Source: Elsinoe ampelina (lineage: Eukaryota). From it: a stretch of 20,000 bases of DNA. Shown piece by piece: positions 1 through 20,000 of the stretch; position 1 is the stretch's first letter, and each line of letters begins with the position of its first letter. The position numbers and the translations under genes were made by a program. Where the stretch lies: positions 1,004,047-1,024,046 of the forward strand of contig ML992510.1 of NCBI GenBank assembly GCA_010093995.1. The letters run 5' to 3'. The notes below the pieces were generated by a model. That model was not told the DNA's origin. It did no database searches and saw nothing but the letters and a program-made list of their open reading frames with translations.

Positions 1-1708
1 ATCCTACCAGCTTGTCCACGACTCATCACCACATTGAAGCGGCGGCGGTCAGTGGCGAGGTAACCCAGCGTGTCACCTGCGCCAGTGGTAGGTCCAGCGC
101 TGGAGAAACTACCAGGTCTCCCGGTCCGGAACGGCCCCCCGCCGCCAGTGGCAGCTGCTTTGCCGCCGAGAACGACACAGTCGATGATCTGCACCATGGA
201 CTGCATGCCTTGGGAGCCGTCGGCGGTCGTGATGGTGGTGCCGGACACGCGCGGTTCGGTTGCGAAGAGAGCCTTGAGGAGATCCACCTGGTCTGCGTAG
301 AAGGTTGTGACGAGGATGTCGGTGGGTGAGAAGCCGCCTTGGACCAGAATGCAGGTGGTGATGAAGGTGATAGCTGGGGTCTGGAAGTTTGTGCGGGAGT
401 TGCTGTTGCGACGCTGTTCTGACTTCCAGGTGTAGTAGCTTGACTGTTCGGGGCTGAGGACGATGGAGCAGATATGGTCGTCTGTGCGGACGAGAGGGTG
501 CTGGGCAGGGAGCAGGCGACGGCGAAGGATGTTTGTGAATTGGTCGACTTCTCTTCGATTCGTTGTGCTGAAGTCATCGACGAGGGTGCCATCGTAAATC
601 AGAGTATTGAAAGCCGCACTGATCTGGGGATGGCTGCGGTATTGTCTTTGGAGGTGGACGGATGGAGTGCCTGCATCGATCAAGCGCTCGAGTTGATAGA
701 TAGAGCCAGTATTGCTGAAAGGATTGCGCGGCGCAACGACGGTTGGTGGGAGCTGTTTGTGATCGCCAACCAGAAGCACTCGCTTGAGTCTATTCCCTCG
801 TAGATAGCTCTGACTGATGGTTGACTTGCACGAGCCTCTGACAGCTGCGAGGTTTCGTCAATGATGAGGACGTCGGGACGGATACGAGACATGATCGGTA
901 GGTCCGCAGCGGACGCAGTCGAATAGATGCCTTGAGCGGCAGCGATGTATGAGGACTGAACATCGCCCAGTGCCTTGCGCTCAGCTCGGCCGAAAGCTTC
1001 CTTTTCAGCCATGCGCTGTTGAACGGTCTTGTTGGTGTCGGTGCGATCAAGCGTCGCATCCTGGTGAGCCTTGTTGAGTCTGGCTAGTTCTTGAATTTCC
1101 TCGGGATAGTATGGTGTCCCTAATGAACCATCCGCCGCTGCTTGGGCCCGGCTGGCAATGACTCTGCTGAGAGACAGGAACTTCCTTCCTTTTTCTGTAC
1201 CGTTGAGGAATCGGAGGGCTCTTTCGTCAGTAGAAGTTTCGTCCAGCTGAAGGGCTTCGAGTGACCCTAGAAGCCCAGAGCTGCCGTCCTGACAGTAGTT
1301 CTCCCAGTCTTGCTGGGCGAAGTTGGAGTGAATGCGATAGATACCGTCAATTTGTCGTTGCCCCTTTCTTGCCATGATTTTACCAGTGAGGACATTTATC
1401 GCGGCATCGCTGTCCCCTGATGCCCAGAAGACATGCTTGACCATACGCTGGGACGGAGCGCTCGAGAGTTGGAGCTCGATCTCAAATGTGTGTTGAAGCG
1501 GTGAGATGTTCATGCTGAAAGTAACAGAGTAAGACTCGTCGGTGGGATGGATGGTGTCCTTGCCGACCTGGATGGCGCACTTGCGGTGGAAGCCGGCGAG
1601 CGTCTGGGTATCGAGCAGGCATCGGTTGAACTTTTTCATAGCATTGGGAGGAGGTGGGAAGCGACTTTCAAGCGCCCATGCGTTGGGTGGATGATCCCTG
1701 TCAGCCAT
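1..1708 (-). pseudogene. Upf1/DNA2-NAM7-like superfamily 1 helicase (AAA_11/AAA_12), frameshifted at ~793; 3' end beyond the window
   Basis: ORF 680..1849 has motif II (DVLIIDETSQLSE). After a 1-nt frame change near 792-797, a second frame stays open to base 1 and reads RLKRVLLVGDHKQLPP (motif III), LQRQYRSHPQI, TTADGSQG (motif V) and LGYLATDRRRFNVVMSRG (motif VI). Likely start is the ATG at 1708 (MADRDHPP), after a CT-rich leader; the ATG at 1849 is also possible. No GxxGxGKT Walker A was found. Confidence 0.85.
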
Positions 1709-2418
1709 GATGTGCAATATGGTAGACTTGGTCAGTTTGAAATCTGAAGTGGGCGAAAGAGAGAAAACTCTGCGGAGGGGTTGAGAGGACTTTACGAGCA
1801 CTGTCAATGTGAAAATACTACCAGGCGGCGAAGTTGGGCTGGCCGGCATCGAATTTCACATGCAAGTAACCGCTGCAAACATGAGAGGATCACAGTAGGC
1901 ATGCCAAACACTCCAGCGGGAACATCGTTGCGGTCATGAGATCTCGCGCCCTGGTAGTATCACTAGAGACTGTCTCGACATGTAGAACATCTGGGAAAGC
2001 TGCTCGGTGACAAGTATGGAGTCAAGCCAGCGACAGTGTGAGATTAGAAGCTGTCGGGCACAGCGTTGTCAACGCGAGTAATCGCAAGCACCAACCCACG
2101 TTATCCGAGGCCGAAGCGTGACAGTGTTTACGAAGCATGAAGCCCGTCGTGATGTCGGCTTTTCGAATGGTATGCATGCGAATAAAAGGCCGAACGAGAT
2201 TATGCTAGTGAGAAAGGAAGTTGGATGAAAGAAGCTGATCTGAAATGGCTGATCGAAACGTTCAAGACCCGCCGCCCGTCCGGCTCCGGATCTTGCAGCT
2301 TGGTCATCGATGAACTCCCCATCTCTCATCACCTCTAGGCCAAAGAATATCAACGAGACAAGTGCGTACATCTCTTCCATTTGAACGGAATCTCTCAAGT
2401 TGATTCATCCGAAACCTC

Positions 2419-2427
2419 ATGAGTCAT
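2419..2427. promoter_or_regulatory. Gcn4/CpcA (AP-1-type bZIP) consensus site ATGAGTCAT
   Basis: Exact ATGAGTCAT about 110 bp upstream of the F-box ATG, in the divergent intergenic region; near-match TGATTCA at 2401-2407. Function is inferred from the consensus only. Confidence 0.35.
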
Positions 2428-2537
2428 CGCAAGCACCATTAGTCAATATTGACTGGTGGCGACAGGCGTCCGTTCGGTACCCTTGCATCACCGCAGATCG
2501 TGGGACGACATCTTCCGTCTGGCAATAGATTTGCGAA

Positions 2538-3853
2538 ATGTCATCTGCACCAGGCTCGGCGCTGGAAAGCCTTTTTTCAATACAGGAACTTCTCTCGCTG
2601 ATCCTATCATACTTGCCGCCATCTCTGGACGAGTATGCCATCGACGGACCCACTGCGGATGACTATCGGTCTCAAGTCACGATCCAGCGTGCTCACAGTC
2701 TGCGAGACTTGATGAGATGCCGACTGGTGTGTCGACACTGGCATTCCGTCATTGGTCAAAGCCGGGAGCATCGGGAAGCTCTTTTCCTAGAAGCATCTCA
2801 TGGACGTGGCGGGCGGAAGAAAACCGTCGATTCGCAGGGACGAAGCTGGGATGTCCCCGATTCTGCACCATGGCTGCAGCTCAATCGCGAGGTCGAGTTC
2901 ATGGGGCGAGGCAGGGCTAATCAAGATATCGAGTCTGATATCGCTGCTTCACGAATACGAATGAGCCAAGTGAGTACACCCCTTATCCTGCCCGGGCACT
3001 GCATTGAGATCCTTTGCATCTGCCAAGTATCCCTTGTGATATCAATAGCCTGACAGTTCAATAGGCTATCCAGGCACCGCAGGTCCTCCGGCCTCGACGA
3101 CCACAATCCATCTCGCGTGCAGCACTATCTGCTCTTCGGGAGAGATCTCAGAGCAACTCTCGGGGATCTCTTCACTCAAGTCTAGCTCGGTCTGCGTCCT
3201 CCTCTCGCGCACCTCGGTCAGACCAAATGTACCCCTGCCGACCGATTCTCAATCCCTTACTCCAGCGCTACTTCCACAATGCACAGTTCCGCTTCAACCC
3301 CATGCACGCCAGCGATTCAGCCAGTCGCTACCAAGCACATCTGATCATCGAACGGGATGACTTCGACCAATGGAACGACATCGCCCACCCATCATCTCCA
3401 ACCTTCCCCCCCTTTGTCCCAACATGGTGCAACATGCACCTCGCCTCACCTCCCATCACATCCATCATCGCCGTGGTCTGGGAACGCAGCACCTACACCC
3501 TCGTCTCCCGCCCTAAACCAACGCCAACCTCCGAATCGTCCTCGCCTGCATCTCGAATCCTCCCCTCCGCACCTCCCTCGACACCTCAAGATCGCGAACA
3601 ACGCACCACCTCCTTCGGCGTCGGCGGCTGGGACCTCTCCGAACAAGCTAGTGAACCGACCCGGCATACAGGCGGCAGGAGGAGTTTCTACCGCAGCGAC
3701 GTGACCATGACAGCCGTGCCGCCTAGTGCGTTCTATAGTACGAAGCAAGTGTCTGATGAGAGAGGGTTGACGATGGGGGTGGTCATGGTGGCTGTGGGGG
3801 AGATGTTTGCCGGTGATGGAGCGCTGAAGGCTGTGAAAGTTTGTACGCAATGA
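2538..3853 (+). CDS. F-box-like domain protein, 2 exons (2538-2969, 3065-3853), ~406 aa
   Basis: N-terminus LFSIQELLSLILSYLP...LMRCRLVCRHWHSVIGQS...EALFL matches the fungal F-box-like pattern. Intron 2970-3064 (GTGAGT donor, CTGAC branch ~3050, TAG acceptor, phase 0) joins ORF 2538 in frame to ORF 3227..3853 without stops. Confidence 0.8.
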
Positions 3854-4362
3854 AGTGCCAGCCCGTGCTACGATTGATTAGTGAAATCTGGTTCATCAGC
3901 GGTTGGGGCTCTGAAGGGAGGATCAGACGTCTGGCCAACACTCTCAAGACTTCTATATTGGCTTGAACATGATTAACGAAGCCGGCCACATCAAGATTTT
4001 CAGGTTGTCGGACACGCCTCGAAACGTACACAGTGTCGACGGAACGTCAGTCCTGGTAGGAATGTTACCACAGATACTACCATTTTCTTTAGCAAATCTT
4101 AAAGTCTGTCATTCGTGTTTATGCTAGGTTCTGGTAGTAATTCTACTATAAGCCATGGACTGAGGGGCTGAGTGCGTTTCCAGGTGTGACTGACAACCTG
4201 AAAATCTCGGTAGCGCGGCAGTACTTTTCGAAAAATCACCTGTTGAACCCTATTCCTGCTTGGACAGAGCATGACGACCTTCTTTCCTCGCCTTGTGGTG
4301 CATCTTGCATCTCTGGCGCGCACGTGATGATGATCTGAGTGTCTCACGAGACGTGAAAGTAT

Positions 4363-4622
4363 TGTCAACCTCGGCAAGAGCTGTGGTGCCAAGAAGGACC
4401 CTGATTCAGTGCAACCAAGGTTGAACTAAGCACTCATCAACAGTTACACCAATTCATGATCAATTTAGACGGTTATTGTCTTATTCTGTTACCATCAAGG
4501 AGTTCTTCTAATTCAGCTATCTCTTAGTTCATTAGGTTAAGTATATATGTAGTTACAATCCACCTAATTTAGGTAGATTAGGCAGTAATAAATCTCTTTC
4601 CCTCCCCACACACAAGTCAACA
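4363..4622 (+). repeat. Copia 5' LTR (260 bp)
   Basis: TGTCAACC...GTCAACA; aligns without gaps to 9453-9712 with 15 substitutions (manual count). Confidence 0.97.
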
Positions 4623-4633
4623 GTTATAAGCCC
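4623..4633 (+). other. Primer-binding site, Ty5/Hemivirus type (half tRNA-iMet priming)
   Basis: GTTATAAGCCC directly after the LTR matches (G)GTTATGAGCCC, the Ty5/copia-type PBS, with one RIP-type TG>TA change. Confidence 0.75.
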
Positions 4634-4790
4634 GGTATAACTACCCCTATACAAGTATATCATTTAGTAGCTTCTCTACTCGATTTATTAGTTCATTCTC
4701 TATCATCTCGCTTTTTAAGCACTAGAATCTGTTAAGTACTGCCTTATCTACTACTACAGGATTCAGGTGTTAACAAAGAGATAAACAACT

Positions 4791-7700
4791 ATAGATACTA
4801 ACACACTAATAGCTAGAACACCTATCATTCTTGCTACATCAGCTGAATAGGCTAGCTAGCTATATATCATTAAGACTAGAGCTTTAAACACTAAGATCTA
4901 GCACCTTGTTAATCCTTAGGAGAGTATTAAGCCTAAAGGGCTCCCTAAGCCTTAGAGGCTAGATATATTAGATCCTAACTTCTTAGCACTCTTCTAGATC
5001 TATAAGGAGGAGCAAGCTTAGCATAACAAACAGCACAAGGCCTTAGTAGATCTAGCTAGCCTTATTTAGTTATTAATTGCACTATAAGTTCTTATAGTTA
5101 TCTAACTAGAGGGAGATCCCTATCTATAGGCTATTCTTAGAGCATTAAAGAACAGATTTGTACTATCTAATGCTATAATTTAGCTTAAGGTTAAAGCTCT
5201 CTAGAGGAGATAGCTCTCTAGTCTATTATTATAGAACATAGACTATTAGCTTTAGCAATAGGAAGAGGTTATAGACAAGGCTAGGAATTATAACCTACTA
5301 GAAGCTTAAGGCTTAAGGCTATAGAGAGACTTCTTACTCTCTATCTTAAGGACTAAACTAGCATTTACTAACAAATATCTTATTGATCTAGATTCACTAA
5401 CTCTGCTAACTATGCTTAAACTAATTACTAAGTTTAGACAGTTTTACAAACTTTATAAGCTATATAGCACCACAAAGGCTAGCAAGGGAGCAATAGCATT
5501 CCCTATAGCTACTAAGGACTCTACAAAAGAGCCTAGTCCTACTAGGGAGCCTAGATATATATACTAGAAGCGGCATAAGTAGAGTAAGTACTATTACTTA
5601 AATAAGTATCTAAGGCTAGAAGGATAGTTACTAAACTAATAAACCCTTAAGGAGGTTAAGCAAAGGCTTAATAATAAGGCCTTAAGGGAGAAGGTTAAAG
5701 CTATCCTTACTAAGGAGGCTTACCTTTATAAGGGGTTATCCCTACTAGTACTAATTAATATAGCTATAACTATTAGATTACACTTAGCATTTATTTTAGC
5801 TACTAGTAACATCTTAAGTTTATAGATTCTAGATTCTAGAGCAACTAATTATATCTATAATTACACTATAAAGGATAGATATAAGGTTACTAGACTTATA
5901 GAACCTTATAAGCAAATGTTCTATAGTAACACCTTACTTACTATTAAGAGTTAGGGATTAATCACTATTATAGCAATTTATAGGGGAAAGCTAGTAACTA
6001 TCTAACTTACATAGGTAGCTTATATACCATTAATAATGACTAATCTAGTTAGCCTTAGGAGGTTCCTAAAGGGTAGAGTCCACTAGAACACTTAAACTAT
6101 AGAGATTAATTACAAAGGGAAGGTACTCTTCTTAGTAACTCTAAAGTATAATTAATACATAGTAGAGAATAACTCTAAAGCTCCTTATGCTATTACTATA
6201 GCTATAGGAGGCACTAGAGATCCTTATCTATTAGTATTTACCTTAGTTATAACAAGGACTAATTAATCTTAGTATAAAGTTATAGGCTATCTAAGTATAG
6301 AGTCTATTAATCACCTCCTAACTGCTATAGTTAGTAGTAAACTAACTTTAACTAAGTCTAACTTGCATTAACTAAGTCATCTTAGGTTACTATATTAGAC
6401 TTGTAAGCTATTAAATGCTTAGAAGCTTATCTTAAGGAGCTCTAATACTAAGATTGTTATAACTAAGCCCTTTAAAAGGATCACCTTTAACATTATTATT
6501 AATAGATTTACTAGCTACAATAAGGCAAGGTATATAAGCTATTTTACCTATAGGGCCACTAACTATCACCTTGTAAGTAGTTATGCTTATAGATATAAGA
6601 TTAATAAAATCTGTATTAAGATAATTACTTACATTAAAAGTAATCTTAGCTTTAAGGTTAGATTCGTTAGGAGTAATAATAAAGAGGCTTTTAGTCTTAG
6701 ATTTACTATCTTCCTAGATAGTAAAGGTATCTAAAGAGAGCTATCCGCTCTATATACTCTAGCATAGAATACTTATAGTAAAAGGATAGGGTCTATACTA
6801 TTAAGGAGAGCAAGGGTAGTAGCTATCTTTACTAATCTTCTAAGGGAACTATACTCTAAACTATATAGATTAGTAGCCTATCTAATAAATAGGACTCTAC
6901 TTAAGAAGCTTAACTAGAAGACTCCCTTTAAGCTAGTTTATAGATGCCCTTCATTAATCTCCTATCTTAGGCTAATTAGTTATAAGGCCTATATACTAGA
7001 TTATTATATCATAAGTAGTAATAAGCTTACACTAAGAGCATACATTAGTTATCTAGTTAGATATAACTTAACTAACATATTTAGGATCTTTATACTAGCC
7101 TTAAAGAAGGTTATTAGAATAAGGGATGTTAGATTTAATAAGACTTAGTTCTATAAGCTAGAGGAGTAGCCTTAGCCTTAGCCTATTAGACTACTTAATC
7201 TACTAAGACTACTATAGGAAGTTAAGGAGAATATACCTTAAACTGAAGAGGTAACTAAAGGCCTATCTATACTACAGAATCTAGTTTAGAATCTAGTTTA
7301 GAATCTAGTTTAGAATCTAGTTCGGAATCTAGCTTAGAATCTAGTTTAGCAGATTCTAACTAAGGAACTAAATAATTATAGTTTATTATTATAGTTATAG
7401 GCTTAATAGGCTCTATTACCTCCACTAGATAATCATAGTCTATTATCATAGTTATAGACCCTAGAGCTAAACCTAGCTTAGATCTAGGAGGCTACATTAG
7501 TAGAGTAGTTCTATAATGCTCTAGCCTCTCTACCCTTAATAGCTATACAGCCTTCACCTCTATCTAAAGCTAAAACTATAAGGAGTGAGGTAGAAGCCCT
7601 AGCTAAAGGGGTAACTAAGGAGCCTAAACAGCCTAGAAGAAGAATTACTATAAGGTTAGCTAACCTATTGCCTAAGCATATCCTTACGACAAGAAGGACT

Positions 7701-9413
7701 AGAAAACTAAGAAGGCAGGCCTATATTACTAGTCTTGTATAGCCTTAGGAGGCTCCTAGATATCATTAAGCTTTTAATGCTTATCTATTAATAAAGCTAA
7801 TCTAGCTAAAGCTAGAACTAAGGGATAATCTACCTCTACTACTAGCTAACATTAGGGAGCTATAAGCTTATTCTTATAGGGAGCAATTCTAACAAGCAAT
7901 AAAGGTAGAATTACTTACTCTCTATTTAAAAGATACTTAGACTATTATACTTACATCTTAAGCTATAGGGAAGCTAGTGCCACTAACTTAGGTCTTTATA
8001 TATAAGACTAATAACAAAGGAGAAGTTATTAAACACAAGGTAAGACTTTATATAAGGGGTAATCTTTAATCTACAGATTTAGAGACTTATATAGCTACAT
8101 TAGCTGCTAAGATTTTTAGAATGCTTATAGCCCTCCTTACTTACAAGGATATAGAGGCTATCTAGATAGATATTGTTAATACTTATATTAATAGTCCTAT
8201 TAATAAGACAATCTACTATACTATCCTACCTAGATTTAAGCTTATACTAGAGGTACTTACAAAGGACTATCCTAGTATAGCATTATCTAATGCAATTCTC
8301 CTACTAAAGAAGGCACTCTAAAGCCTTAAACAAGCACTAGCTCTCTAGTATGTAGAATTTACTACTACACTAAAGAATCTTAGATTTACTTAGGCCCCTA
8401 AGGCTCTATGCCTCTAGCTAACCCCTAAGGTAATAATCTTCTTCTTTGTAGATAATATTACTATTATATACCTTAAGAAGCACAAGGGCAAGGCTAATGC
8501 TATTATTATAGCCCTATATGCTAAGTATAAGATAAAGATGCTTAGAGATCTAAGCTAGTTCCTTGCTATCTAAGTTATAAGGGATAGGTCTATAAGGAGG
8601 CTATAGCTTAGCTAAGCCTAGTACTTACAATAGATGTATAGCAAGTTTATTATAGAACTAACAAGGCTAGTATTAACACCTCTGCTAATAGAGATGATCT
8701 AGCTAAATAAGGGCTAAGTATCACTATAGGAGATCTATCTATATTAGCAGAAGATAGGATCTATTAATTTTGCAGCTGTCATTACTAGGCCTAATATTAC
8801 CTTTACTACTTCTAGATTGTTAGAGCATCTAATAAATCCTTTACTAACACACTAAAGGCTAGCGAATAGAGTGATCTAGTATCTCTATAAGACTAGAGAT
8901 CTAGCCCTTACCTTTAATGGCTTAATACCACCACTAATCTTCTAAGCCTTATTAGATACTAGCTTTAGAAGTTACCCTTTAAGGAAGAGCCTTTAGGGGT
9001 ATCTATTTAAGCTATTCTAAGGCTCTATAGATTAGAAGGCTATAAAGCAGCTAACTGTTACTACTTCTAGCATAGAGGCTAAACTACTTGCTCTTATAGA
9101 GACCACTAAGCAAGCTATATAGTAGAGGAGGCTAATAGCTGCTATCTATCTACTAAGGAATGTTAGTATTTAGTGTAATAACTAGCAAACTATTAGCCTT
9201 GTCACTAATCTAATTAAGAAGCTTAACACACATCTACGCTATGTAGATATCCACTATCACTAGCTAAGGCAAGAGATCACTCTAGGAGGCCCTATCTCTA
9301 TAGACTAGACTCTCTTAGTAGATACACTAGCAGATAGACTTACTAAGTCACTTCCTCTAGGGAGGTATAAGGTCTTCTTGTAATAGCTATCCCTCGAGTT
9401 AGTAGTCCACTAA
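4791..9413 (+). pseudogene. Copia gag-pol polyprotein relic
   Basis: De-RIPed motifs: PR WILDSGATDHIC (5823), pre-integrase WHKVMGHL (~6271), IN FVRSDN (6663) and APYTPAQN (~6747), RT FFVD(D) (8442), RNaseH HVDIHYH...GLTKSL (~9240-9355). The gag start, PR, IN and RT motifs checked share one frame; many TAG/TAA stops attributable to RIP. Confidence 0.92.
7276..7349 (+). repeat. Six copies of 12-bp tandem repeat AGAATCTAGTTT in the copia IN-RT linker
   Basis: Units start at 7276, 7288, 7300, 7312, 7324 (variant) and 7336; in frame, inferred ancestral peptide (Q/R)NPV. Confidence 0.9.
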
Positions 9414-9452
9414 CTAGCTATAATAGACTTATAGCTATTCAGTGAAGGGGTG

Positions 9453-9712
9453 TGTTAACCTCGGCAAGAGCTATGGTGCTAAGAAGGACCCTAATTTAGT
9501 GCAACCAAGGTTGAACTAAGCACTTATCAATAGTTACACTAATTTATGATCAATTTAGACGGTTATTGTCTTATTCTGTTACCATCAAGGAGTTCTTCTA
9601 ATTTAGCTATCTCTCAGTTCATCAGGTTAAGTATATATGTAGTTACAATCCACCTAATTTGGGTGGATCAGGCAGTAATAAATCTCTTTCCCTCCCCACA
9701 CACAAGTCAACA
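9453..9712 (+). repeat. Copia 3' LTR (260 bp)
   Basis: TGTTAACC...GTCAACA, preceded by the PPT and followed by TSD AGTAT. Confidence 0.97.
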
Positions 9713-9864
9713 AGTATTGATTGTCTCTCAGTAATGGTATTTACAATGAAAAGGGGCTAGACAGTAGCAGCTACAGAACCATCCCAGCCTTTTCCTCTGC
9801 CTTCCTCCTCCTTTGCCACCTATTTATCCACCTCCATCCCTTTCCCCGACGAGTCCGAAGAGTA

Positions 9865-11000
9865 TTACTTCGACAAAGGCCTGAACCCAACCGTCAGCCA
9901 CGGATAGGCAGCGCATCCAGTCTTGGCCGTGTCGTACGTCACGAAGACAAAGGTGCTAGCCGCGGGCTCTCCGACGACGCTCCCAGGACAGACGAGGAAA
10001 GTCATGGGCTTATTCCCCGCGCCACCCCTCATCGTGACTCTTCCGGAGTCGGTGCCGATGCTGCTGAGGCTCCACTGCATCGTGTTCTGGAACCGGGTGT
10101 CCGAGGTCAGGATGGAGTAGTTCTGGCGGTCCAGGAGGGCGTCGTTCATGGTGATCATGCTGGTGGTGGCGCTGTTGAGCGGGGTCGAGAACAGGGCCGC
10201 GGTCGCCAGGTTCGCGGTGCGGATCTTGAACGTGTAGGTGCCTGCTGGCGGGGTGGAATCCAGGGTGAGGGCCGTCGTCATGATGGTTGTTGCGGAATTG
10301 GCGACGTGGGGCCCGAGTTGTACGACTTTGTTGTTGTAGGCTACTCCGAGGCCGTTTGCGACTGATGGGATGGACATGTAGAAGTCTCTGCTGAAGAAGG
10401 AGGCAGTGGATATTGGTGTGGCCGATGTGGTGGTGGTGGTTGATAGTTTGGCCGTGGACAAGGTGGTGGTCGAGCTTATCTTCAATGGCGTGGCAGCTGG
10501 GGTGCTTGTCGGAGCCCGGAGCAGTGCTGGATTCTGGATGACGCACTGACATGCGGCGATGGCTTGCTGAGTGCTGAAAGCCGATGCGAATGGCTGAGAA
10601 GTGCCGGATCTGGTGAACGAGATCGATTAGCACTTGTTCGGAGAAATTGCTCAAATACAAAAGGTGCTCGATAGACTTACGATAAGAACCAAGTACACAT
10701 CTTTGTTGCATCCTTGAACGTGGCGCCAAGACGTTTGATAACAGTGTCATTCGTGGAGCAGACTTGATTCTGCGGTATCAAGCAAGCGCAGGCAACATTG
10801 ATCTGGCTAGGCGTCAGGCCGGCAAAAGGCGAAGTGAGCTGGGCCGTAGGCGTGGCACTATTCCAGGCCAGACAGAAGTCAGACGAATCGATGCCGGCGG
10901 CGCTGTTCAACAGCACAACCTCTGAGCTTGTGTTGCATGATTGAGCTATCGCAGCGCTGAAGAGACCTGTCAAGGTCAAGGCGGTGATTGCTGACCGCAT
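9865..11000 (-). CDS. Secreted Cys-rich protein with two tandem 4-Cys modules, Ser/Thr-rich linker and C-terminal domain; exons 11000-10681 and 10609-9865; ~354 aa
   Basis: Signal-peptide-like N-terminus MRSAITALTLTGLFSAAIAQ. Intron 10680-10610 (GTAAGT, GCTAAT branch, CAG) joins ORF 10677..11000 in frame to ORF 9865..10485 without stops. Repeated module C-x20-C-x1/2-W...PF...Q...ACxC. Confidence 0.85.
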
Positions 11001-11734
11001 CTTTGCAGGGTCACTGTACGATCGGTACGGGTGTAAGGAGAAGAACAGAATCGGTGCTCACCTTGACTCCCTCTATGTTGGGAGCTTCGCGCTGATAAGA
11101 AGGATCTGAGATGTACTACCTAGCCATACCTTTGGTCGACGGTTGCGTTCAACGGTGTCATTGGCAAGGAAATGTCTTGTATGATGGAGGAAAAAGGTGG
11201 ATACAGCGCGGCGATGGTGGGACGCTGTGGACTGTCTCCGATGAGGCTGACCGGTATTGGCTGCCAAAGCTCGCCTGGACCACTGTGGCTGGCAAGATAA
11301 GTGAATAGGCCACGAGGAAAGGGTTGGCCGTTGAGCGAAAACGGGCAAAGCGCTCGGCTTCGACGTCGAGCTCACTCAGATCAGAACAAAATCGAAAACC
11401 CGCGTGAGTCGTTACGAACGGCAAGGGCAGATGCAAACGGCTGAGGCAAGCTTGAACATGTCAGTGAGAATTGTGAGATCCTGCACCGAGGCTTTGTGGC
11501 TGAGCGCTAGCCTTGAATTGTCTCCATATTTCGAGAGGGTCTATACGTCTGTTATGAGTACATAACGCTGTAGCTGACGAGAAGCCTGTCGCCCAAAAGA
11601 TGTAGCACCACATTGATCAGTCTTGCCTTGTCTAATCTTTCGTGCCCCCGACAGTGCGGCAAAACCGTTCTGTACAGGTCACATACGCCTTCGTCGAGCC
11701 CAGTTGCGAAGAATGGATTACTATAGCAAGCTAA

Positions 11735-12050
11735 CAGGTGTCGCTCACATTTATTCAAGATTATATGAGCAATGATGCCCCGTACTCCTCCCCCATCCAA
11801 GCTAAGTATACGTATACCTGCGGTTAGTGGTATTAACCTGATTATCTTGTCCGCGGACGAAGATCGACAGAGCATGTAACGCTATATTCGATATGCATGT
11901 TTTTTAGTCCTACATCGAGCGCTAAAGATCTTTACGCAGCTGTTGTAAAAGGAATGCTCGCATTTAAGCTACTTCTCTAGAGAGCAATATAAGCAGCATA
12001 GACAAGTCTAATTACTAAAGGTATCTTATAGGAACTTATTAGTTTAAATA
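11735..12050 (-). pseudogene. Patatin-like phospholipase (fungal Cys-cluster + patatin type) fragment, RIP-eroded and 3'-truncated
   Basis: One frame reads FSN*TCLCCL..S(P)EK*LKCEHSF..SCVKIF...MLCR...IRLIP(P)TAGIRILSLDGGGVRGII (patatin DGGGxRG motif preceded by a Cys cluster). No GxSxG catalytic motif was found downstream. Upstream extent into the AT-rich DNA is uncertain. Confidence 0.8.
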
Positions 12051-12557
12051 AGTTAGCTCTATATCTAATATAGTAGAAAATCTAATATACCTTAGTATAT
12101 TAGTAATATAGACTCGTTTCTATATATACTACTAGAGTACTAATATACTATACTAAGTACTAATAGTTAGTTAATTCTATAGACTACTAGAATAACTACC
12201 TAGGTGTAGATTACTACTAGTTTAAGCTTAATAAACTACTTCTTAGTTAGTACTACTATTACTTCTAGCTATAGTTAGTATACTTATACTAACCTTATTA
12301 TCTAGAATTAGAATAGAACTATAATTCTAATTATGCTCTCTAATGTTAATAGTTATAATAGAGTATCTAGATAGAGTAGATATAATGTCTCTAAGATAGA
12401 GAAGCAATAGAGAAGAAGTATATACTATATAAATATAATAACAAATTTCTAACCTCTCTATAGAAGGTTAGAAACTACTACTATATATACTATATAGGAT
12501 TATAGCTAGAATAACATATCTCTAACGTCTGTCTACTAGCTATAAGTTTATAGTTTC

Positions 12558-12787
12558 TATTATAATTGCCTTCTTCTCTATAGGCCTATTCTTAGGCTAG
12601 TCTCTTATTAAAACCCTCTAGTAGTAGAGAAAGAGTAGACTACCTTTAGAGTATCGTTACGCTATATATAGAAGTCTATATATAGAGTCTTAGTATTAGA
12701 TAAGAAATATAAAGTGTAGCTCTACTTAACTTTATATATAAATTTGCCTTACTTAGTATATATAATAATATTATTCCCTTATCTCCT
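12558..12787 (-). repeat. Tentative PPT plus LTR of a third LTR element
   Basis: Minus-strand purine tract AGGAGATAAGGGAATAA (12787-12771) followed by TATTAT (RIP form of TGT...) and a TATATAAA box. The left end (12558) is a guess from a RIP-form terminal repeat. Confidence 0.35.
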
Positions 12788-13086
12788 AGCTACTATTATA
12801 CTAGCTATAATAATAATTAGTAAGCTACCTTATTTCTTCTTATATTCTTTATCTTATAATTAGTATAGGAGCCTTCTATTATTTATAATAATAGGATAAT
12901 AGAATAATAAAGTGCTTTAATATATATATAAGGCTTTTCCCTTATTAGAATACTTCTTCTCTTTCTTCTAAAACTCTTTTACTAAAGTATAGCTTTTTTC
13001 TCTCTAATTTATACCTTATACTAACTTTCTCTAGTATATCTCTAATATCTCGTTACTCTCTCTCTACTATTAGAAATCTTTTATTA

Positions 13087-13861
13087 ATATATCTTCTCTA
13101 GTAAGTACCTCCTCTAGTAATTAAGTCTATAGTTAAATCTAGTATAAAGGTACTTTACTATTATCTCCTAGTTACTTTAACTCTATCCTTATTAAGGGGA
13201 GTTCTTATGTTAACTACCTTAAGCTCTCTACTAAATATATAATATTAAATAACTCTAACTTTACTAATAACTCTTACTACTATAAGGAGTAGAATAACTA
13301 TACCTTCTACTAGCTCTATAGGCTCTACTATAATAGCTATACCTTTATAGGTCTAATATCTATTCTATATTAGAGTAATACTAATATTCCTAGTTTTCTA
13401 AGCGCTATAATACTAAGCTCGATACTACTAGAATTACCTATAAGGCTATCTATATCTACTATTATAATAACGAAGATAAGTACTTAGCTACTATACTCTC
13501 TAATAAGTAGTATATTTATAGCACCTACGCTATAATAGCAAGATATATTACTACTCTTAAGGCTAAATATATTTCTACTAAGAAGAAGAGAAAGAGAGAA
13601 GAATCTAACTCTAATAATAATTTACCTATAACCTATAAGAACTTTACTATCTTACTTACTAGTAGCTAAAAGACTAACGAGTTATTAGTAAGAATTATTA
13701 GCGCCTAGTCTACTAGGAAGGCTCTTACCTACGCTACTATACTAGCCTCTAGTAGTACTACTAGTAGAGCTTAAGAGATTTAGAGAGTTAGAGTAGTTAC
13801 TAGTATAGTCTTTAGGTTTCTAAGTATAAGTATAGGTTTCTTAGTTAATATAATAGCTTAG
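13087..13861 (+). pseudogene. RIP-degraded ORF of unknown function, antisense to the surrounding LTR elements
   Basis: Frame from 13173 runs ~230 codons with roughly ten TAG/TAA stops and codon-like periodicity. Upstream are a TATA run (~12920-12931), a CT-rich leader, candidate ATA(<ATG) starts at 13087/13089, a GTAAGT donor at 13101 and an acceptor at 13171. Confidence 0.4.
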
Positions 13862-14288
13862 AGCTATTAGAGATAGATTTTGCCTTTTAGAGTTTATAGA
13901 GTTTTTTGCTTTCTACTTCTTCTTTTTGCCTAAGTTTCTTATTTTATAGCCCCTAGTAAAGCTATAGCTCTTAGATTGCTCTTACTTCTTTATTAGGGGC
14001 CTATTATCCCCTTAGGTATTATTATATTATTATATTATTAAGGGTCTATTATTAAGGTAAGTATTATTAAGAAGAGTATTATTATTTAGATAATAGAGAA
14101 GTAATATATATATACTATCTTCTCTCTCTTTTCCCTTAATCTCCTTAGACTTCTTATTCTCTCTATCTACTTAACTTCTATACTATAATATTAAAATTCT
14201 ATAGTATTATAACCTACTATATCTCTACTAATTAGATTAATAACTCTAGCTACGCTATATCCTTTAAGTCTCTAGAGATTACTAATAT

Positions 14289-17230
14289 TATTATAGATAA
14301 TTATAGCTAGTAAGATAAGAGTTTAATTATGTCTATTTATTAAGATATTAAGACTTAGAAGAAGAAGAAGAAAAGCTAGTATATAAAGTATATATAATAT
14401 CGAGGGCGGAGTAGCTAAAAGCCTAGGCCGTAATACTAAAATTATATAACTAATCTAAACTAGATCCTAACTAAATCTAGTTTGTATCTATCTCGTATTA
14501 CTACTCTCTCTCTTAAGCGCATTTACTCTTAAACGCTATTATATATTATTTATTAATCTATTTTAGCCTTAGCTTATCTATGTAAGAGTCTAGATAGTTA
14601 CGTAGCACGTTAGTTACTCCTTTAAGGTTATTAATTAGCTACTAGATAAGATTCTCTAGATAGCTCTTCTAGCTTATATAAGTAACTAGCTTCCCTTATA
14701 GTAAGTATATATTAATTACATCGTCTACCTTATACTTCTCTTTACTATTAACCTCTATCGGAGGTAGTTCTTTAAAGACTTAGCCTAGTAAGGAGTTATT
14801 TAGATATTTAGTAAGAAGGTTAGTATAAAACACTAGGTAGATCCTTTATAAAGAGGCTAGTAAATCGAGCCTATAAACTAATAGTAACTACTTCTTAAGG
14901 ATCTTATAAGAACTAATATACTTTAGTAGTAGCTTTAGATTACTCTATAGCTAAAGATTTTTCGTCGATAACTATACTAAATTACTAGCTTCGAACTCTA
15001 TTAGCTAGCAGTATTTATTAGCTTATTCTACTATTCGTAACTAAGTAATAGTAAGGTTAGCTTTAGTAATAGTAAGGGCTTCTTATAGTTGCTTAGTAAG
15101 CGCGCGAACATTAGCCTTATTAAGCTTAGCTCTTATTAATAGTACGTCGGTAGAGGGCTAGAAGCTTATTCTTAGCTTATATCCTCTAGTTGCCTTAAAT
15201 AGTAATAGTTTAGTACTTTTCGAGGGGTTAGCGTTTATAGAGAACTCTATAACTAGTAAGATAAGAGTCTAATTACTAAACTATATTACATAGGATTAAA
15301 TAACTTATTTAAACTCTCGGTTTATAACTTCTAATTAGCTATCTATTTAAGAGTAGCTAGTAGTAGATAGCTTAGCTATAATCTTTAGAATCTAGTAGAG
15401 TCTCTTCTATACGTCGCTAACGAACTAAGGGCCGTAGTTAGAGGTAATACTATCTAGTAGACTATATAGTTTCTACACGTAGAAGAATAATAGCTTAGCT
15501 ATTTTAAACACTAATATTTCTCCTTCTCTAGAGAAGTAAGAGATTAAGTGTCGTTCCTTAGACAAGCGATTAATAATATATAGTACTACGTTATAGCTAT
15601 CTACTAAGAGTAAGCTAGTAACGAAGTCTATAGTAATATATTACTAAGGTCTTACTAGAATAGGTAATAGTAATAAGAGGCTAGCTAGTAAGCTATAGTA
15701 AGCCTTTAAGCGCTTATAGTTATAATAGTTAGTAACGAACCTCTTAATATTAGTATTGTACCTAGGGATATAGAAAGTAGACTTAATTATAGTAGCTGTC
15801 TTAGTAGCTCCTCTATATATATAATTCTTTAAAGTATAAACTCCTTAGATAACCTTCGTAGCTATAGAGAAAGGCACGATTAGTCGGCTATTAGTCTATA
15901 GTATCTCCTTTTTAATTGTAATATCGATTAATAGTAGCTATTTCCTCTTTAGAAAGACTTCTATTATATAGTAGATACTATAAACTGTCTTAAAATTAGA
16001 GTCTTATAGGTTAGCTTTAGCTACTTTATTAAAAAGAGGTAAAAGCTCTTCTATAGCTAAGATAGGTACTACGTAGATACCTAGTTTAGTAGCTAAAATA
16101 GGCACCGATATAGGTAGTAAAATAGAAGGCGAAATAGGTAATAAACTAGATAGTAAACTAGTTCGTAAACTAGATACTAAACTAGATCTTAGTTCGGCTT
16201 AGATTAGTAATCTAGTTTAGATACAACCTAGATTTAGTTTGTTAATAATACGCTAATCTAGTACCTTATATAGTAGTAGTATCTAGCGTAGATTAGAGTC
16301 TTCTCTTAAATGTAGTATATTTCTATTTCTCCTCGTAAGTACGTTAGCCTTACTATTAGTAGCGCTAGGCCTATATATAATCTTAAAGTTAAACTATATA
16401 AGGTAGAGAGCCTAGCGCGCCTAGTAGCGTAATAGCTTCTAAGTCTTTATAAAGTGTATTAAGGATTAGTAGTTAGTAAGAACGTAGATAGCCTTATTAA
16501 ATTAAGTACTTATAAGCTTAAGAGTCTACTCCTTAAAGGCTTAAATAATAGCTAGTAGTTTCTTGTTATAGATAGTATAGTTATATTTAGCTTTATTTAT
16601 AGATTTACTAAAAAAGGTAATAGGCTAGAGAATATTAGACTTATTATATTATAATAGAATCCTAGCAGTAGTAGTATTAGAAGTATTAGTCTTAAGAACT
16701 ATCTATTTTAAGCAATTAAAGTATATAAGGATAGACGCACTTATAATAGTATACTTTATATAATTAAATATAGTAGTATACTTATCGTTCTATAGCTTAG
16801 TGTCCTTCTTAAGTAAATTATTTAGTAGCTTAGTAATAGTACTAAATCCCTTAATAAAGTAGTAATAATAGCTATAGAAACTAATAAAGCTTCTTACCTA
16901 AGTAGTATTACTAGGAGCTAGCTATTTCTAGGCTCTAATAGCTTTTACCTTCTTAGGATCTATCTTAACTCTATCTTAGCTAATAATAATACTAAGGTAC
17001 TTTACTTCTATAAGATAGAATTTACTCTTCTTAATGTTAGTATTTAGGCCTAACTTATAGAGCTATTAGAGCACTAGCTTAATATACTTAGTATACTCTT
17101 AGTAAGAGCTGTTAGTATAAATAAGAATATTATTAAGGTAGATTAATATAAAGCGCTCTAGTATATTAATAAAGTTATAATTTATAAATCTCTACTATAC
17201 TATAGAGGCGTTAGTATAACAAAGGTAGAA
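14289..17230 (-). mobile_element. Ty3/gypsy chromovirus element 1 (partial RT-RNaseH-IN-chromodomain + 3' LTR), interrupted in RT
   Basis: De-RIPed: RT YLDDILI (~17120-17140), RNaseH NYTIYDKELLAII (~16545-16585), IN PWQHITMDFVTGL (~15610-15650) and KLHGLPDSITSDRGPQF (~15420-15475), IHPVFH plus chromodomain EEYEVDDV...WKGYP (~14600-14845). PPT GAGAGAGAGTAG (14512-14501); LTR starts at 14500; left LTR end ~14289 is tentative. Confidence 0.9.
16143..16190 (-). repeat. Four degenerate 12-bp tandem units in the gypsy RNaseH-IN linker
   Basis: + strand units AAACTAGATAGT, AAACTAGTTCGT, AAACTAGATACT, AAACTAGATCTT. Confidence 0.7.
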
Positions 17231-17428
17231 TATTAGAGCTAGAAAGACAAGTATATAAGAGTAGAATAGGTGTTATACTAGTATACTCTCGATTATTGTA
17301 AGACTAATCTCTACTCTATCTATTCTATAGGCAAGAAGTGTTTTATTCTTCTATAGAGAATAGTATCTCTAGAGTAAGCTAGTATAGCGTACTTACTATA
17401 TTAGTTCTTATAATTATTCCTCTCCTTC
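17231..17428 (-). repeat. Probable PPT (17428-17413) and ~182-bp 3' LTR (17412-17231) of element 2
   Basis: PPT GAAGGAGAGGAATAAT, then TATAAGAAC (<TGTAAGAAC) ... AATAAA ... CTCTAATA (<CTCTAACA), ending where element 1 RT codons (LPF..TNA) resume. Confidence 0.6.
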
Positions 17429-18069
17429 GAGAGGTATACTCTTATACCTATAAGCCTTAATAAAACCTAGAAAACCTAGTATAGGAGAAAACTAAGAAAG
17501 AGTATCTCGCTAGTGTCTCTTAGGTATAGCGTACCCTTTATATATATAGCGTACTTATAGTAGCCTATACTATTCTTCGTATACTAGATATAGTAATAGT
17601 AGTATAATTCTTTATATATAGAATATAGCGCTCTTATATTATTATTTTTATATATAAGAATCTACTTATTATTATATACTACTACTTATTATTCTTTAGA
17701 TTAGTCTTAGCTTAGAGCTAGATATATATTTTTTTCTTCTTCTTCTCTTCTTCTTTTCTTCTTTATAATACTTTCTTTATATAAGTATTCTACTTAATAC
17801 TAGCTTTATACTTATATAGGTCTAATACTATACTAGTAACCTATTTTAGGTGCTATATAGTATAGACTAGGTCTTACTAGCCTAAGAGCTAGTAGGGGAG
17901 GCTTAGTATATATACTAAGCCTACGCTACTATAGATCTAGCTATTAGGCTTATCTATTTAGTTGTTTATTTACTAATCTAGTATAGCACCTATATAGTAA
18001 TTTTTTTTCTCTTTGTTATTCTAGCTCTATACTAGCTTACCTCCTATATACTTATATACTTTAACAACT

Positions 18070-18940
18070 ATAGCTCCTAAAGTTTCTAAGAAGTAAGTAT
18101 TATATATAGCACTTACGCTATACTAGCGCTAACCTTTTATAGACCTTATAAGAGCGATTTTACTAACTAGAACTAGTATTCTATACTATACTTACGCTAT
18201 GCTATTACTATTAATAAGTACCTCTAGCTTAAAGATAGTATACTTTCTATTAAGAATTTCTTCTACTAGATTACTAAGGCTAAGGCTACCTACTATAATT
18301 GTTATAGTTATAGTAATAAATACTACTACTAGGTATACTCTATACCTACGCCGCGTCTACTTTATACTAACCTTAGTAGCCTACCGAGCTTAACTCTAAG
18401 AATTAAGTTACTACTAAGAAGCTCTAGGATAAATACTTTACTATATATATACTACTCTATAACGACGCTACTACTTCTAAGAAGAACATTATTCTTCTAA
18501 AGCGCTAGATTACTACCTATACTAACTATATATATAAGAAGGCTAGTACTAAGTATACGTAGAGTAAGCCTAATACTAAGAGTAAAAGTAAGGTAGTTAA
18601 TAAGAGTAATAGTAATAGTATAACTTCTTTACGCTATAATAGCGCTATTACTATACTCTCTACTCCTAAAGTCGATACTAAGTAGCTAGTAAAGACGCTA
18701 CGCCTAGGTATAATTAGTAATATTAGCTTTATACTTAAGGCTTTAGCTAATTATATAAGTCTAGAAGTACGCCTCTATAACGCCTAAGCTACGCTAACTT
18801 CCTTATAGATAGTTACTAAGAATAAGTAAGCCGCTACTACGTAGGCGATTAATAACACTATAAGGGCGCTAACTAGGTATATTAATAGTATTAAGAAGAA
18901 TAATAAGAATAAGACTAAGGTAGATAATATAGATAGTTAA
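18070..18940 (+). pseudogene. RIP-degraded three-exon gene (~257 aa) antisense within gypsy element 2; exons 18070-18092, 18143-18332, 18380-18940
   Basis: ATA(<ATG) GCT CCT AAA start (MAPKVSKK); intron 1 GTAAGT..GCTAAC..TAG (50 nt); intron 2 GTATAC..TACTAAC..TAG (47 nt). Splice phases link the low-stop frames. Internal stops are all TAG/TAA. The 3' end is uncertain. Confidence 0.65.
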
Positions 18941-20000
18941 GATAGAAGAGACTAGAGCGCTACGCCTATACTATACTCTCTTTACTTTAGTATAATTCTA
19001 TAGTTTTTGCTACGCTAGTATTCTCTCTATGTAAGCTAATAATACTCTAAGCTAACCTAGCGCTACGCCTAGGTACTCTTTACTTTAAAATTTGTACCTT
19101 TAACTTATTAATCCTAAGTATATCTAGAGTGTTTAGCTAGCGCTATACTTATACTAAGCTACCTCGTATTTATATAGTAATCCCTTAGCATTTATAAGGT
19201 TTTTTACTAGCTCTTATATACTTTCTTCTATAGAGTAACTCTACTACTTTACTAGGTAGTATAGCGCCTTTAGGGTACTAGTATAGCTCTTATCGAAGAT
19301 ATATTTAATAATGTATTCTTCTTACCCTTTTACCTCTAGAGGTAGTAGGTATATACTCTTACTACGCCTATATAGCTCTAGTAGCGCGATGTTAAAGACG
19401 TTATAGATTAGCTTTATTTTATCTAGTAAGCGTAGCTTATATATCTATATACTAATTCGTTATATAATTATAAATAGGCTAATTTACTTAGCTAATAGCT
19501 TATAGCTAGGTCTAGCGCTATAAAGGTTCTTAGTACTAAGTATAACCTTATTACTATTATAGAAGACTTTTACTTATTAACCTTTATTATAGACTAGCGC
19601 TTAGTCTTTCTATACTTTATATAGGTATTAGGTAAGCTCTATATACGTTTTAGTAATAGATTACACTTAGTTATTAACTAACGAGTTATACGCTAGCGTA
19701 TAGCTAGGTAGCACTAGCGCCTTAATATTATTAAGTAGGTATATCTCCTACGTAAATAAGAACTATACTAGCGTAGTATATAGTAATGCTTAATATATAT
19801 TATTATACACAAATTGCGCCTACTTAACCTAGTATAGCTAGTCCGTCTAGTAATAGTTAATAAAGTAGCGTAGGTACTACTCTAGTGTTTAGTTTTACCT
19901 TTCGGTTTAGCTATCTATCTATAGATAGAAACTAGTACTAAGCTTATATTACGCCTTCTAGCGCTAGTATAGCGCACTCTAGAATTTGCTTATAAAGATA

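Follow-up and report, generated by a model that had tools for sequence, protein, structure and literature searches.

Near the right-hand end of a 20,000-nt stretch of the Elsinoe ampelina genome (hereafter the window; NCBI GenBank assembly GCA_010093995.1, contig ML992510.1, positions 1,004,047 to 1,024,046 of the forward strand), an interval of approximately 1.73 kb separates the end of the pol gene of a minus-strand Ty3/gypsy chromovirus (element A) from a candidate 3′ long terminal repeat (LTR). Our analysis suggests that this interval likely contains an ancestral coding region on the plus strand, antisense to gag-pol, and we put the probability that this region was a part of element A at roughly 0.55. 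Antisense accessory open reading frames (ORFs) of LTR retrotransposons are already known in fungal chromoviruses, and the interval is probably a further case, inactivated by repeat-induced point mutation (RIP). An initial annotation of the same DNA had proposed a spliced antisense gene of three exons in this position; the coding signature that we detected on the plus strand agrees with an antisense gene in a chromovirus, but the exact three-exon form did not hold up.

The evidence for coding on the strand opposite gag-pol is statistical. RIP has interrupted the frame with stops, and the present copy is dead, with 13 stop codons in its best frame. The features concerned are the following.

18377–19012, plus strand: coding-like region in frame +2 (212 codons; exon 3 of the initial annotation), recognized by periodicity, a codon model and a stop deficit.
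18133–18390, plus strand: 86 codons free of stops in frame +1, which is the longest such run across all frames of 11950–20000 and overlaps exon 2 of the initial annotation.
18563–18620: degenerate tandem array with a period of 6/12 (Tandem Repeats Finder, TRF).
18892–18919: second short tandem array with a period of 6/9 (TRF).

Over 18377–19012, base composition depended strongly on codon position (codon position × base χ2 77.4, p 1e-14), and in 360-nt windows the statistic peaked at 59 (p 6e-11) at 18380–18919, compared with a maximum of 47 in the pol gene of a second chromovirus in the window (element B). The three codon positions of frame +2 are A-rich (0.49), G-poor (0.10) and T-rich (0.45), respectively, and the same pattern is found on the sense strands of the RIPed pol B and of a RIPed copia element further to the left. 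A 64-codon usage model trained on the RIPed pol B recovered the true frame in 14/14 windows of the copia element (4700–9424) and in pol A; at 18300–18929, frame +2 was chosen by 24–25 log units with all three training sets, a margin as large as that of any true coding window. Stops in 18377–19012 number 13 in frame +2, against 17 and 47 in the other plus-strand frames, and so few stops in the best frame were rare in a Markov-1 simulation (P 0.0045). The 86-codon run was likewise rare (P 0.0015 for the local composition, 0.004 for the whole interval), and the interval holds a second run of 55 codons (frame +0, 18333–18497). Among the other stop-free runs of at least 55 codons in the RIPed DNA of the window, 8/10 lie in known sense frames. 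None of the public runs listed for this stretch is recorded as RNA; RNA-like contigs from two public runs (X3 and X6) cover the GC-rich genes of the window and returned just a 41-nt low-complexity match over 12007–20000 (18879–18919), a result that cannot show absence.

The degree of mutation determines how this sequence can be read. GC-rich stretches (51–58 % GC) alternate in the window with AT-rich blocks (25–36 % GC) at approximately 4500–9500 and 11900–20000. The RIP index TpA/ApT is 2.0 over 12000–20000 and 0.45 in the GC-rich part, while (CpA+TpG)/(ApC+GpT) is 0.107 and 1.33, respectively, with just 37 CA and 50 TG dinucleotides remaining in the right-hand 8 kb. No ORF of at least 80 codons was found in the right-hand RIPed block. 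The whole of this block, the interval included, is classically RIPed. For comparisons with homologues, we therefore used a RIP-aware log-odds score for the observed codon given the homologue residue, in which C-to-T and G-to-A changes are allowed mainly in a CpA/TpG context; in a positive control, the RT-RNase H (reverse transcriptase-RNase H) part of homologue P0001 scored 695 against pol B, while reversed or shuffled queries scored approximately 35. A cruder best-case de-RIP score was dropped, since reversed queries scored as high as real ones, indicating that a free de-RIP reading constrains very little.

The interval is flanked by features of element A as follows.

19160–20000, minus strand: C-terminal part of pol A, comprising the integrase SH3 domain and a chromodomain-like end, and leaving the window on the right.
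17413–19159: putative post-pol internal region of element A, approximately 1.73 kb, where neither strand shows homology to pol, gag or protease.
17413–17436, minus strand: polypurine tract (PPT)-like run directly before the LTR candidate, literal in the sequence.
17231–17412, minus strand: candidate 3′ LTR of element A, 182 bp, with TA…TA ends that could be RIPed TG…CA.

Pfam matches across the six frames (stops read as X) were confined to one minus-strand frame (SH3_Tf2-1, RT_RNaseH_2 and Integrase_H2C2), with SH3_Tf2-1 falling in pol A (19549–19370, E 7.4e-11). A HMMER query made from 15500–19099 in that frame returned 38,383 relatives, the best 150 of which were taken as pol homologues; among these 150, none had its best stretch before query residue 604 (i.e. 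right of ~17290). The same homologues gave 270 high-scoring segment pairs (HSPs) by tblastn, with 13 overlapping 17450–19200, all of them within 19160–19999. Together these 13 HSPs run from 19999 to 19160–19196, covering the integrase C-terminus to the end of pol; no HSP fell in 17450–19159. RIP-aware scores for pol A were 287–345 (best 15 homologues), and the alignments reached 1–24 residues from the C-terminus of the listed full-length homologues (1–3 for P0029). Pfam Chromo was not matched directly on the RIPed reading, and the end of pol A is only chromodomain-like. Element A nevertheless appears to have the domain order of a chromovirus, with the integrase followed by a chromodomain(-like) end of pol.

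The long gap that the initial annotation had placed between the end of pol and the PPT/LTR was thus borne out, with pol A ending at ~19160 and a gap of ~1.73 kb, as was the existence of the boundary features themselves: the purine run at 17436–17413 and the 182-bp TA…TA stretch at 17412–17231 are literally present. A similar PPT-like motif with the same flanking octamer occurs at 12555–12585 (compared by eye). The outer edge of the LTR candidate (17231) coincides with the point where pol B homology abruptly starts, and contig depth in the public run X1 is 28.0k at 17383 and 4.1k at 17555, which fits an LTR. No second copy of the LTR scored above null within the window by blastn, by blastn on a purine/pyrimidine-collapsed sequence or by a transition-tolerant Smith–Waterman search; the 5′ LTR of element A must lie beyond 20000.

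We compared the interval with pol A by contig depth, summed at 80 % likeness in four public runs, including X1 from the same organism and X4 from another organism. In X1, summed depth across 17343–19343 was 15.8k, 12.8k and 16.8k, with pol A at 14.8k and single-copy sequence at ~180; in X4, it was 24.6–43.6 for the interval and 35.4 for pol A. Similar depth in two organisms suggests that the interval travels with pol A, although this is supportive evidence, as the point depths vary. A long LTR would be expected to be at least twice as deep as pol, and the depth of the interval is no higher than that of pol A, arguing that it is not a long LTR. The interval therefore probably belongs to chromovirus A. 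Its location between the end of pol A (~19160) and the LTR-like boundary at 17231, where element B is truncated, is seen directly; the matching 5′ LTR is outside the window, and the interval may be conserved among copies of family A, its summed contig depth being similar to that of pol A in the two organisms.

On its other side, the LTR candidate abuts element B.

14573–17245, minus strand: pol of chromovirus B, cut in mid-RT and followed by RNase H, integrase and chromodomain, in a single frame with no frameshift.

Pfam placed RT_RNaseH_2 at 16786–16523 (E 4.4e-14) and Integrase_H2C2 at 15817–15713 in pol B. By tblastn, pol B was often recovered as one HSP of 855–898 residues, with the element spanning 17368 at most to 14573, and its alignments reach the C-terminus of P0018, P0041, P0015 and P0115, in which the last domain is Pfam Chromo. 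P0001 aligned with a RIP-aware score of 1327 from residue 528, inside its RVT_1 domain (452–612). For 128/150 homologues, the RIP-aware alignments to pol B begin at 17190–17279, and the preceding 110 RT residues of B were not detectable upstream (in-phase mean 26.3, reversed-query mean 27.7, 119 homologues). The element boundary at ~17231 is real, and together these two results indicate that B was cut in mid-RT at ~17231–17245. The simplest account is that element A, with its 3′ end at 17231, probably inserted into B, i.e. that A is nested in B. We also considered the interval as the 5′ LTR, gag and protease of B and rejected this because the RT homology ends abruptly at ~17245; the gag-protease parts of seven homologues gave RIP-aware scores of 30–43 against the interval on either strand, with nulls of 25–46. 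Downstream of pol B, RIPed DNA at 11950–14573 adjoins the gene. B-level depth in X1 extends at least as far as 14418 and is lost before 13846 is reached; the LTR of B itself may thus be located between ~14500 and ~14000.

We propose that the interval would represent the 3′ internal region of the minus-strand chromovirus A, inserted into the RT gene of chromovirus B, and that both elements would later have been destroyed by RIP. The plus-strand remnant would then correspond to an accessory protein gene of ~0.65–0.95 kb, running from ~18070 or 18133 to ~19012, antisense to gag-pol and with its 3′ end ~110–150 bp from the end of pol. By analogy, transcription may have started at a promoter of its own between the 3′ LTR and the ORF and proceeded towards pol, and the product may have acted in trans, with the element itself or host silencing as its target; a regulatory or anti-silencing function is speculative. 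Since the gene would lie opposite the genomic RNA strand, any intron would survive retrotransposition.

Several observations weigh against an antisense gene belonging to element A. Pfam returned no family for 6/6 plus-strand frame pieces of the interval, and a protein database search with the plus-strand reading gave 278 candidates, none of them with E ≤ 10. A RIP-aware profile of the antisense six-cysteine family described below scored 30.2–36.7 across the six frames, with none standing out. Neither the 5′ LTR nor a target-site duplication of element A is found in the window. Point depths within the interval are noisy (4.1k–23.8k), so the sums at 80 % likeness are supportive and not decisive. 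Frame calls are fallible, as the copia-trained model was wrong in 4/7 pol B windows and on pol A, and masking the arrays reduced the margin of frame +2 over frame +0 from 9.5 to 4.4. The coding signal also requires a switch from frame +1 to frame +2 at about 18377–18390, for which a 1-nt indel in the dead copy, an intron whose length is 1 mod 3 or the presence of two ORFs could account. Finally, the interval shows no codon-level similarity to the related stretch at 12400–14573 (score 29, z −0.5; pol control 138).

The best-surviving alternative, which we regard as unlikely, is that the coding remnant is real but foreign to element A, i.e. a fragment of another transposon or of a host gene lying between a truncated A and an unrelated LTR-like repeat as a result of nesting, recombination or deletion in a transposon pile. 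The block is indeed a pile of nested elements, and no second LTR in the window links 17231–17412 to A. In addition, the stretch 12007–14007, which is weakly colinear with the interval, does not track the depth of pol B (X1, 3.9–6.1k against 23–45k; X4, 0.6–0.8 against 5–23), showing that such sequence can adjoin a chromovirus without belonging to it. Against this, the end of pol A is intact and lies only ~110–150 bp from the ORF-like region, which leaves no room for an LTR of A's own, so simple nesting cannot give the observed layout, whereas insertion into B of an element A with a long 3′ region accounts for both junctions. The depth of the interval also equals that of pol A in two organisms, and no transposase, gag or other domain was detected in it by Pfam.

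The stretch at 11950–14573 bears on this question. In addition to the PPT-like motif, it shares with the interval a colinear pair of short blastn HSPs (E 1.5e-9 and 3e-5). The stronger HSP is a 57-bp island (18071–18127 against 13485–13539, 82 % identity, E 1.5e-9). At the DNA level, the two pol genes are less conserved than this island. Periodicity and the same succession of low-stop frames as in the interval are also present in 12400–14573, and this stretch may derive from the 3′ part of yet another element that resembles A but is more diverged. We rejected 11950–14573 as a clean second copy, given the missing codon-level similarity and a depth that does not follow pol B. The sequence at 12007–14007 is nearly absent from the second organism (X4).

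A further alternative, slightly less probable than a foreign remnant and likewise unlikely, is that no gene ever existed here: the interval would be a long 3′ untranslated region without coding function, or a piece of a long LTR, in which short tandem repeats with periods divisible by three, strand composition skew and RIP jointly imitate coding statistics. The two tandem arrays (period 6/12 and 6/9) do lie inside the signal, and masking them nearly halves χ2; the weakened margin between frames +2 and +0 points the same way, as do the lack of a homologue and of conservation with the related stretch. The plus strand of 17413–18400 is pyrimidine-rich, which lowers stop frequency, and long POL-3′LTR regions bearing arrays are known in plant Retand elements (PMC11963269). 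On the other hand, periodicity persists after masking (χ2 46.1, p 3e-8), with all three minus-strand frames worse by at least 20 log units. The Markov-1 simulations preserve composition and dinucleotides and still return P 0.0015–0.0045; the depth does not exceed that of pol, contrary to a long LTR, and 18400–19050 is A-rich on the plus strand, as sense strands are.

An IMG/VR scan with an alignment of the pol homologues yielded 23 chromovirus loci. One of these (L022) is intact and unRIPed, with identical 300-bp LTRs at 110–409 and 6652–6951, and carries an intronless antisense gene (5918–6561, minus strand of the locus). The start of this gene lies 91 bp inside the boundary of the 3′ LTR, and the gene also overlaps the end of pol. 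The encoded protein combines a short, basic N-terminus with a cysteine cluster and an acidic, Ala-rich coiled coil. This product belongs to a family of 52 proteins (P0151–P0202; loci L026–L047), all unnamed or 'hypothetical' and one of them from Sporormia fimetaria, with six invariant cysteines (C-x2-C-x6-C-x8-C-x2-C-x6/7-C, the spacing of fungal Zn2Cys6 clusters) followed by a long acidic, Ala-rich coiled coil. Pfam Zn_clus matched the family below threshold (12.7 bits, cut-off 21). Members are ~145–254 codons long and intronless (single tblastn HSPs). In 20/24 metagenome loci, the gene lies on the opposite strand, tail-to-tail with the C-terminal end of a chromovirus pol, at an offset ranging from ~50 bp of overlap to a gap of ~300 bp; of the remaining loci, 2/24 were too short to tell and 2/24 had an N-terminal pol-like match only. 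Scanning IMG/VR with the single sequence P0102 or with the alignment of the family gave no matches, and we found no description of the family in the literature searched. It is apparently a conserved and undescribed family of antisense genes.

The arrangement of the six-cysteine genes resembles that of the interval in several respects. They lie on the strand opposite pol, tail-to-tail with its end and between pol and the 3′ LTR; in the window, the frame +2 region ends at ~19012 and pol A at ~19160. Their size (~145–254 codons) is comparable to the 212 codons of the frame +2 region. In description, their basic N-terminus, cysteines and acidic Ala-rich helix also equal the product that the initial annotation had deduced, a likeness that extends to the description only. 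In contrast, no sequence or profile similarity to the window was detectable; the family genes are intronless and may overlap pol, while the region in the window needs a frame change; and the gene in L022 starts within ~30–90 bp of the LTR, while the ORF-like region here lies ~640–950 bp away from the LTR candidate. By tblastn, the best match of the family to the window had an E value of 2.9, the pairwise RIP-aware scores against the interval were under the null maxima, and a shuffled-profile null (built with other chunk sizes; mean 32.4, 95th percentile 41.3, maximum 49.2) encompassed the profile scores given above. The 42 antisense ORFs from the 23 IMG/VR loci gave low-complexity matches only against the interval. 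Judged from its sequence, the window appears to carry neither the six invariant cysteines nor a profile similarity to the family, though RIP lowers the power of this comparison and the two may be distant kin.

The initial annotation had been more specific, pointing to the following features.

17720–17765, plus strand: run of TA and, after it, a CT-rich tract of TTC repeats (TRF array at 17729–17764), which we read as a possible promoter element for a plus-strand transcript.
18070–18092, plus strand: putative first exon and start codon, literal in the sequence, where the ATA could be an ATG altered by RIP.
18093–18142, plus strand: intron-like string 1, 50 nt, GTAAGT (18093) … GCTAAC … TAG (18140–18142), literal.
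18333–18376, plus strand: intron-like string 2, 44 nt, GTATAC (18333) … TACTAAC … TAG (18374–18376), literal.

The TA run and CT tract at ~17720–17765 are literally present. So are the ATA at 18070 and both intron-like strings, whose lengths of 50 and 44 nt connect frame +1 to +0 and +0 to +2; the strings and their phases speak for the exact gene (18070–18092, 18143–18332 and 18377 to ~19012, with two canonical introns and a C-x2-C-x6-C protein). The reading of these strings as introns fared less well. In exon 2 (18144–18332), frame +0 contains five stops and falls 13.5 log units short of frame +1, which is free of them, so string 2 joins an upstream frame without support to frame +2. For 18070–18092, frame +1 was not the best frame in the codon model, although the stretch is too short for that model. 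The candidate start and first exon lie within the 57-bp island, where the interior of string 1 is the best-conserved part, above the 'exon'; in the matching sequence at 13485–13539, the sole related stretch of the window, there is no ATG-compatible codon at the place of the start, no GTAAGT and no branch point corresponding to that of string 1, so the splice signals are not conserved. Loose intron-like patterns occur at 3.1/kb on this strand, against 0.0–2.4/kb on both strands of other RIPed DNA, and CTAAC and TACTAAC are common RIP products.

The proposed C-x2-C-x6-C motif rests on unconstrained de-RIP, and the six-cysteine profile favours no frame. The acidic, Ala-rich C-terminus likewise depends on free de-RIP choices, under which real and reversed queries perform equally. 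The six-cysteine family does open with the same C-x2-C-x6-C spacing, and the cysteine-cluster part of P0152 has its best frame +0 alignment at 18288–18404, with its first three cysteines opposite Y, C and Y (score 31.3, reached by 6/200 shuffles). This was one of 18 targeted tests, and at 18288–18323 the first three positions of the spacing fit while the last three fall on L, T and L; two further targeted tests reached 1/200, both in frame 2 at other places and mutually inconsistent. With the family members intronless and the related stretch devoid of the GTAAGT and CTAAC signals, the exact three-exon gene is highly improbable.

The initial annotation knew of no intron-containing equivalent of its gene in fungal chromoviruses, and the novelty that it thereby claimed for an antisense gene in this position is not sustained. 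The antisense gene brtn of Boty-like elements is reportedly to be credited to Zhao et al. 2011 (Virology 417:248). In the accounts that cite this study (PMC7264820, PMC8365987, PMC4227169), the coding capacity of the Boty-like elements in Botrytis and Sclerotinia comprises gag, a zinc knuckle, protease, RT, integrase and a chromodomain, and these chromoviruses carry brtn in antisense between pol and the 3′ LTR. Among fungal antisense ORFs in LTR elements, brtn was the one case found in the literature searched. As cited there, brtn resembles the proposed gene of the interval in being an addition to a fungal, chromodomain-bearing LTR retrotransposon, placed in antisense after pol and before the 3′ LTR; the host here differs from that of the Boty comparison in its GC-rich genes (52–58 % GC) and strong RIP, and the two are likened by layout and not by sequence. 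The plant literature places antisense ORFs between pol and the 3′ LTR of the Ty3/gypsy elements Grande, RIRE2, Retand and PvRetro13 (PMC7264820, PMC11963269), with long POL-3′LTR regions containing tandem arrays in Retand elements (PMC11963269). As described there, the plant elements differ from the interval in belonging to non-chromovirus (Tat/Retand) lineages with regions of 2.9–6.6 kb, and their ORFs mostly encode Transposase_28, a domain not detected by Pfam in the plus-strand frame pieces of the interval.

Elsewhere in the window, positions 4363–9712 are occupied by a RIPed Ty1/copia element on the plus strand in frame 0 (Pfam RVT_2, SH3_retrovirus and Pol_BBD), with 260-bp LTRs at 4363–4622 and 9453–9712 that are 94 % alike. 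A single X1 contig connects 4410 to 9538 across this element, reflecting a solo-LTR copy at another site or else a collapse during assembly. The GC-rich islands between the RIPed blocks (1–4211 and 9683–11854) contain expressed, spliced genes, with RNA-like X3 contigs showing junctions at 2969|3065 (plus strand), 10609|10681 (minus strand) and 11013|11062 (minus strand). The ORF at 680–1846 (minus strand) has an AAA_11 helicase-type domain and that at 2538–3050 (plus strand) an F-box, while the gene at 9683–11430 gave no Pfam match in the ORFs tested.

As the copy of the antisense region in the window is dead, it is of use for marking how the element is built, but not as a functional gene. The six-cysteine family may be the more useful result, since unRIPed copies exist and allow direct tests. 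It is conceivable, though doubtful, that family A, which is common to the second organism, carries an undescribed antisense gene unrelated to brtn and to the six-cysteine family, with at least one spliceosomal intron near 18380. If so, fungal chromoviruses would have gained antisense regulators several times independently, and introns would be tolerated there because the genomic RNA is their antisense strand. If the antisense coding region of element A is real, it would represent a second or third fungal chromovirus lineage with an antisense accessory gene; this would suggest that such genes recur in the biology of fungal retrotransposons, perhaps as regulators of LTR transcription or of host silencing, rather than being a curiosity of Boty.

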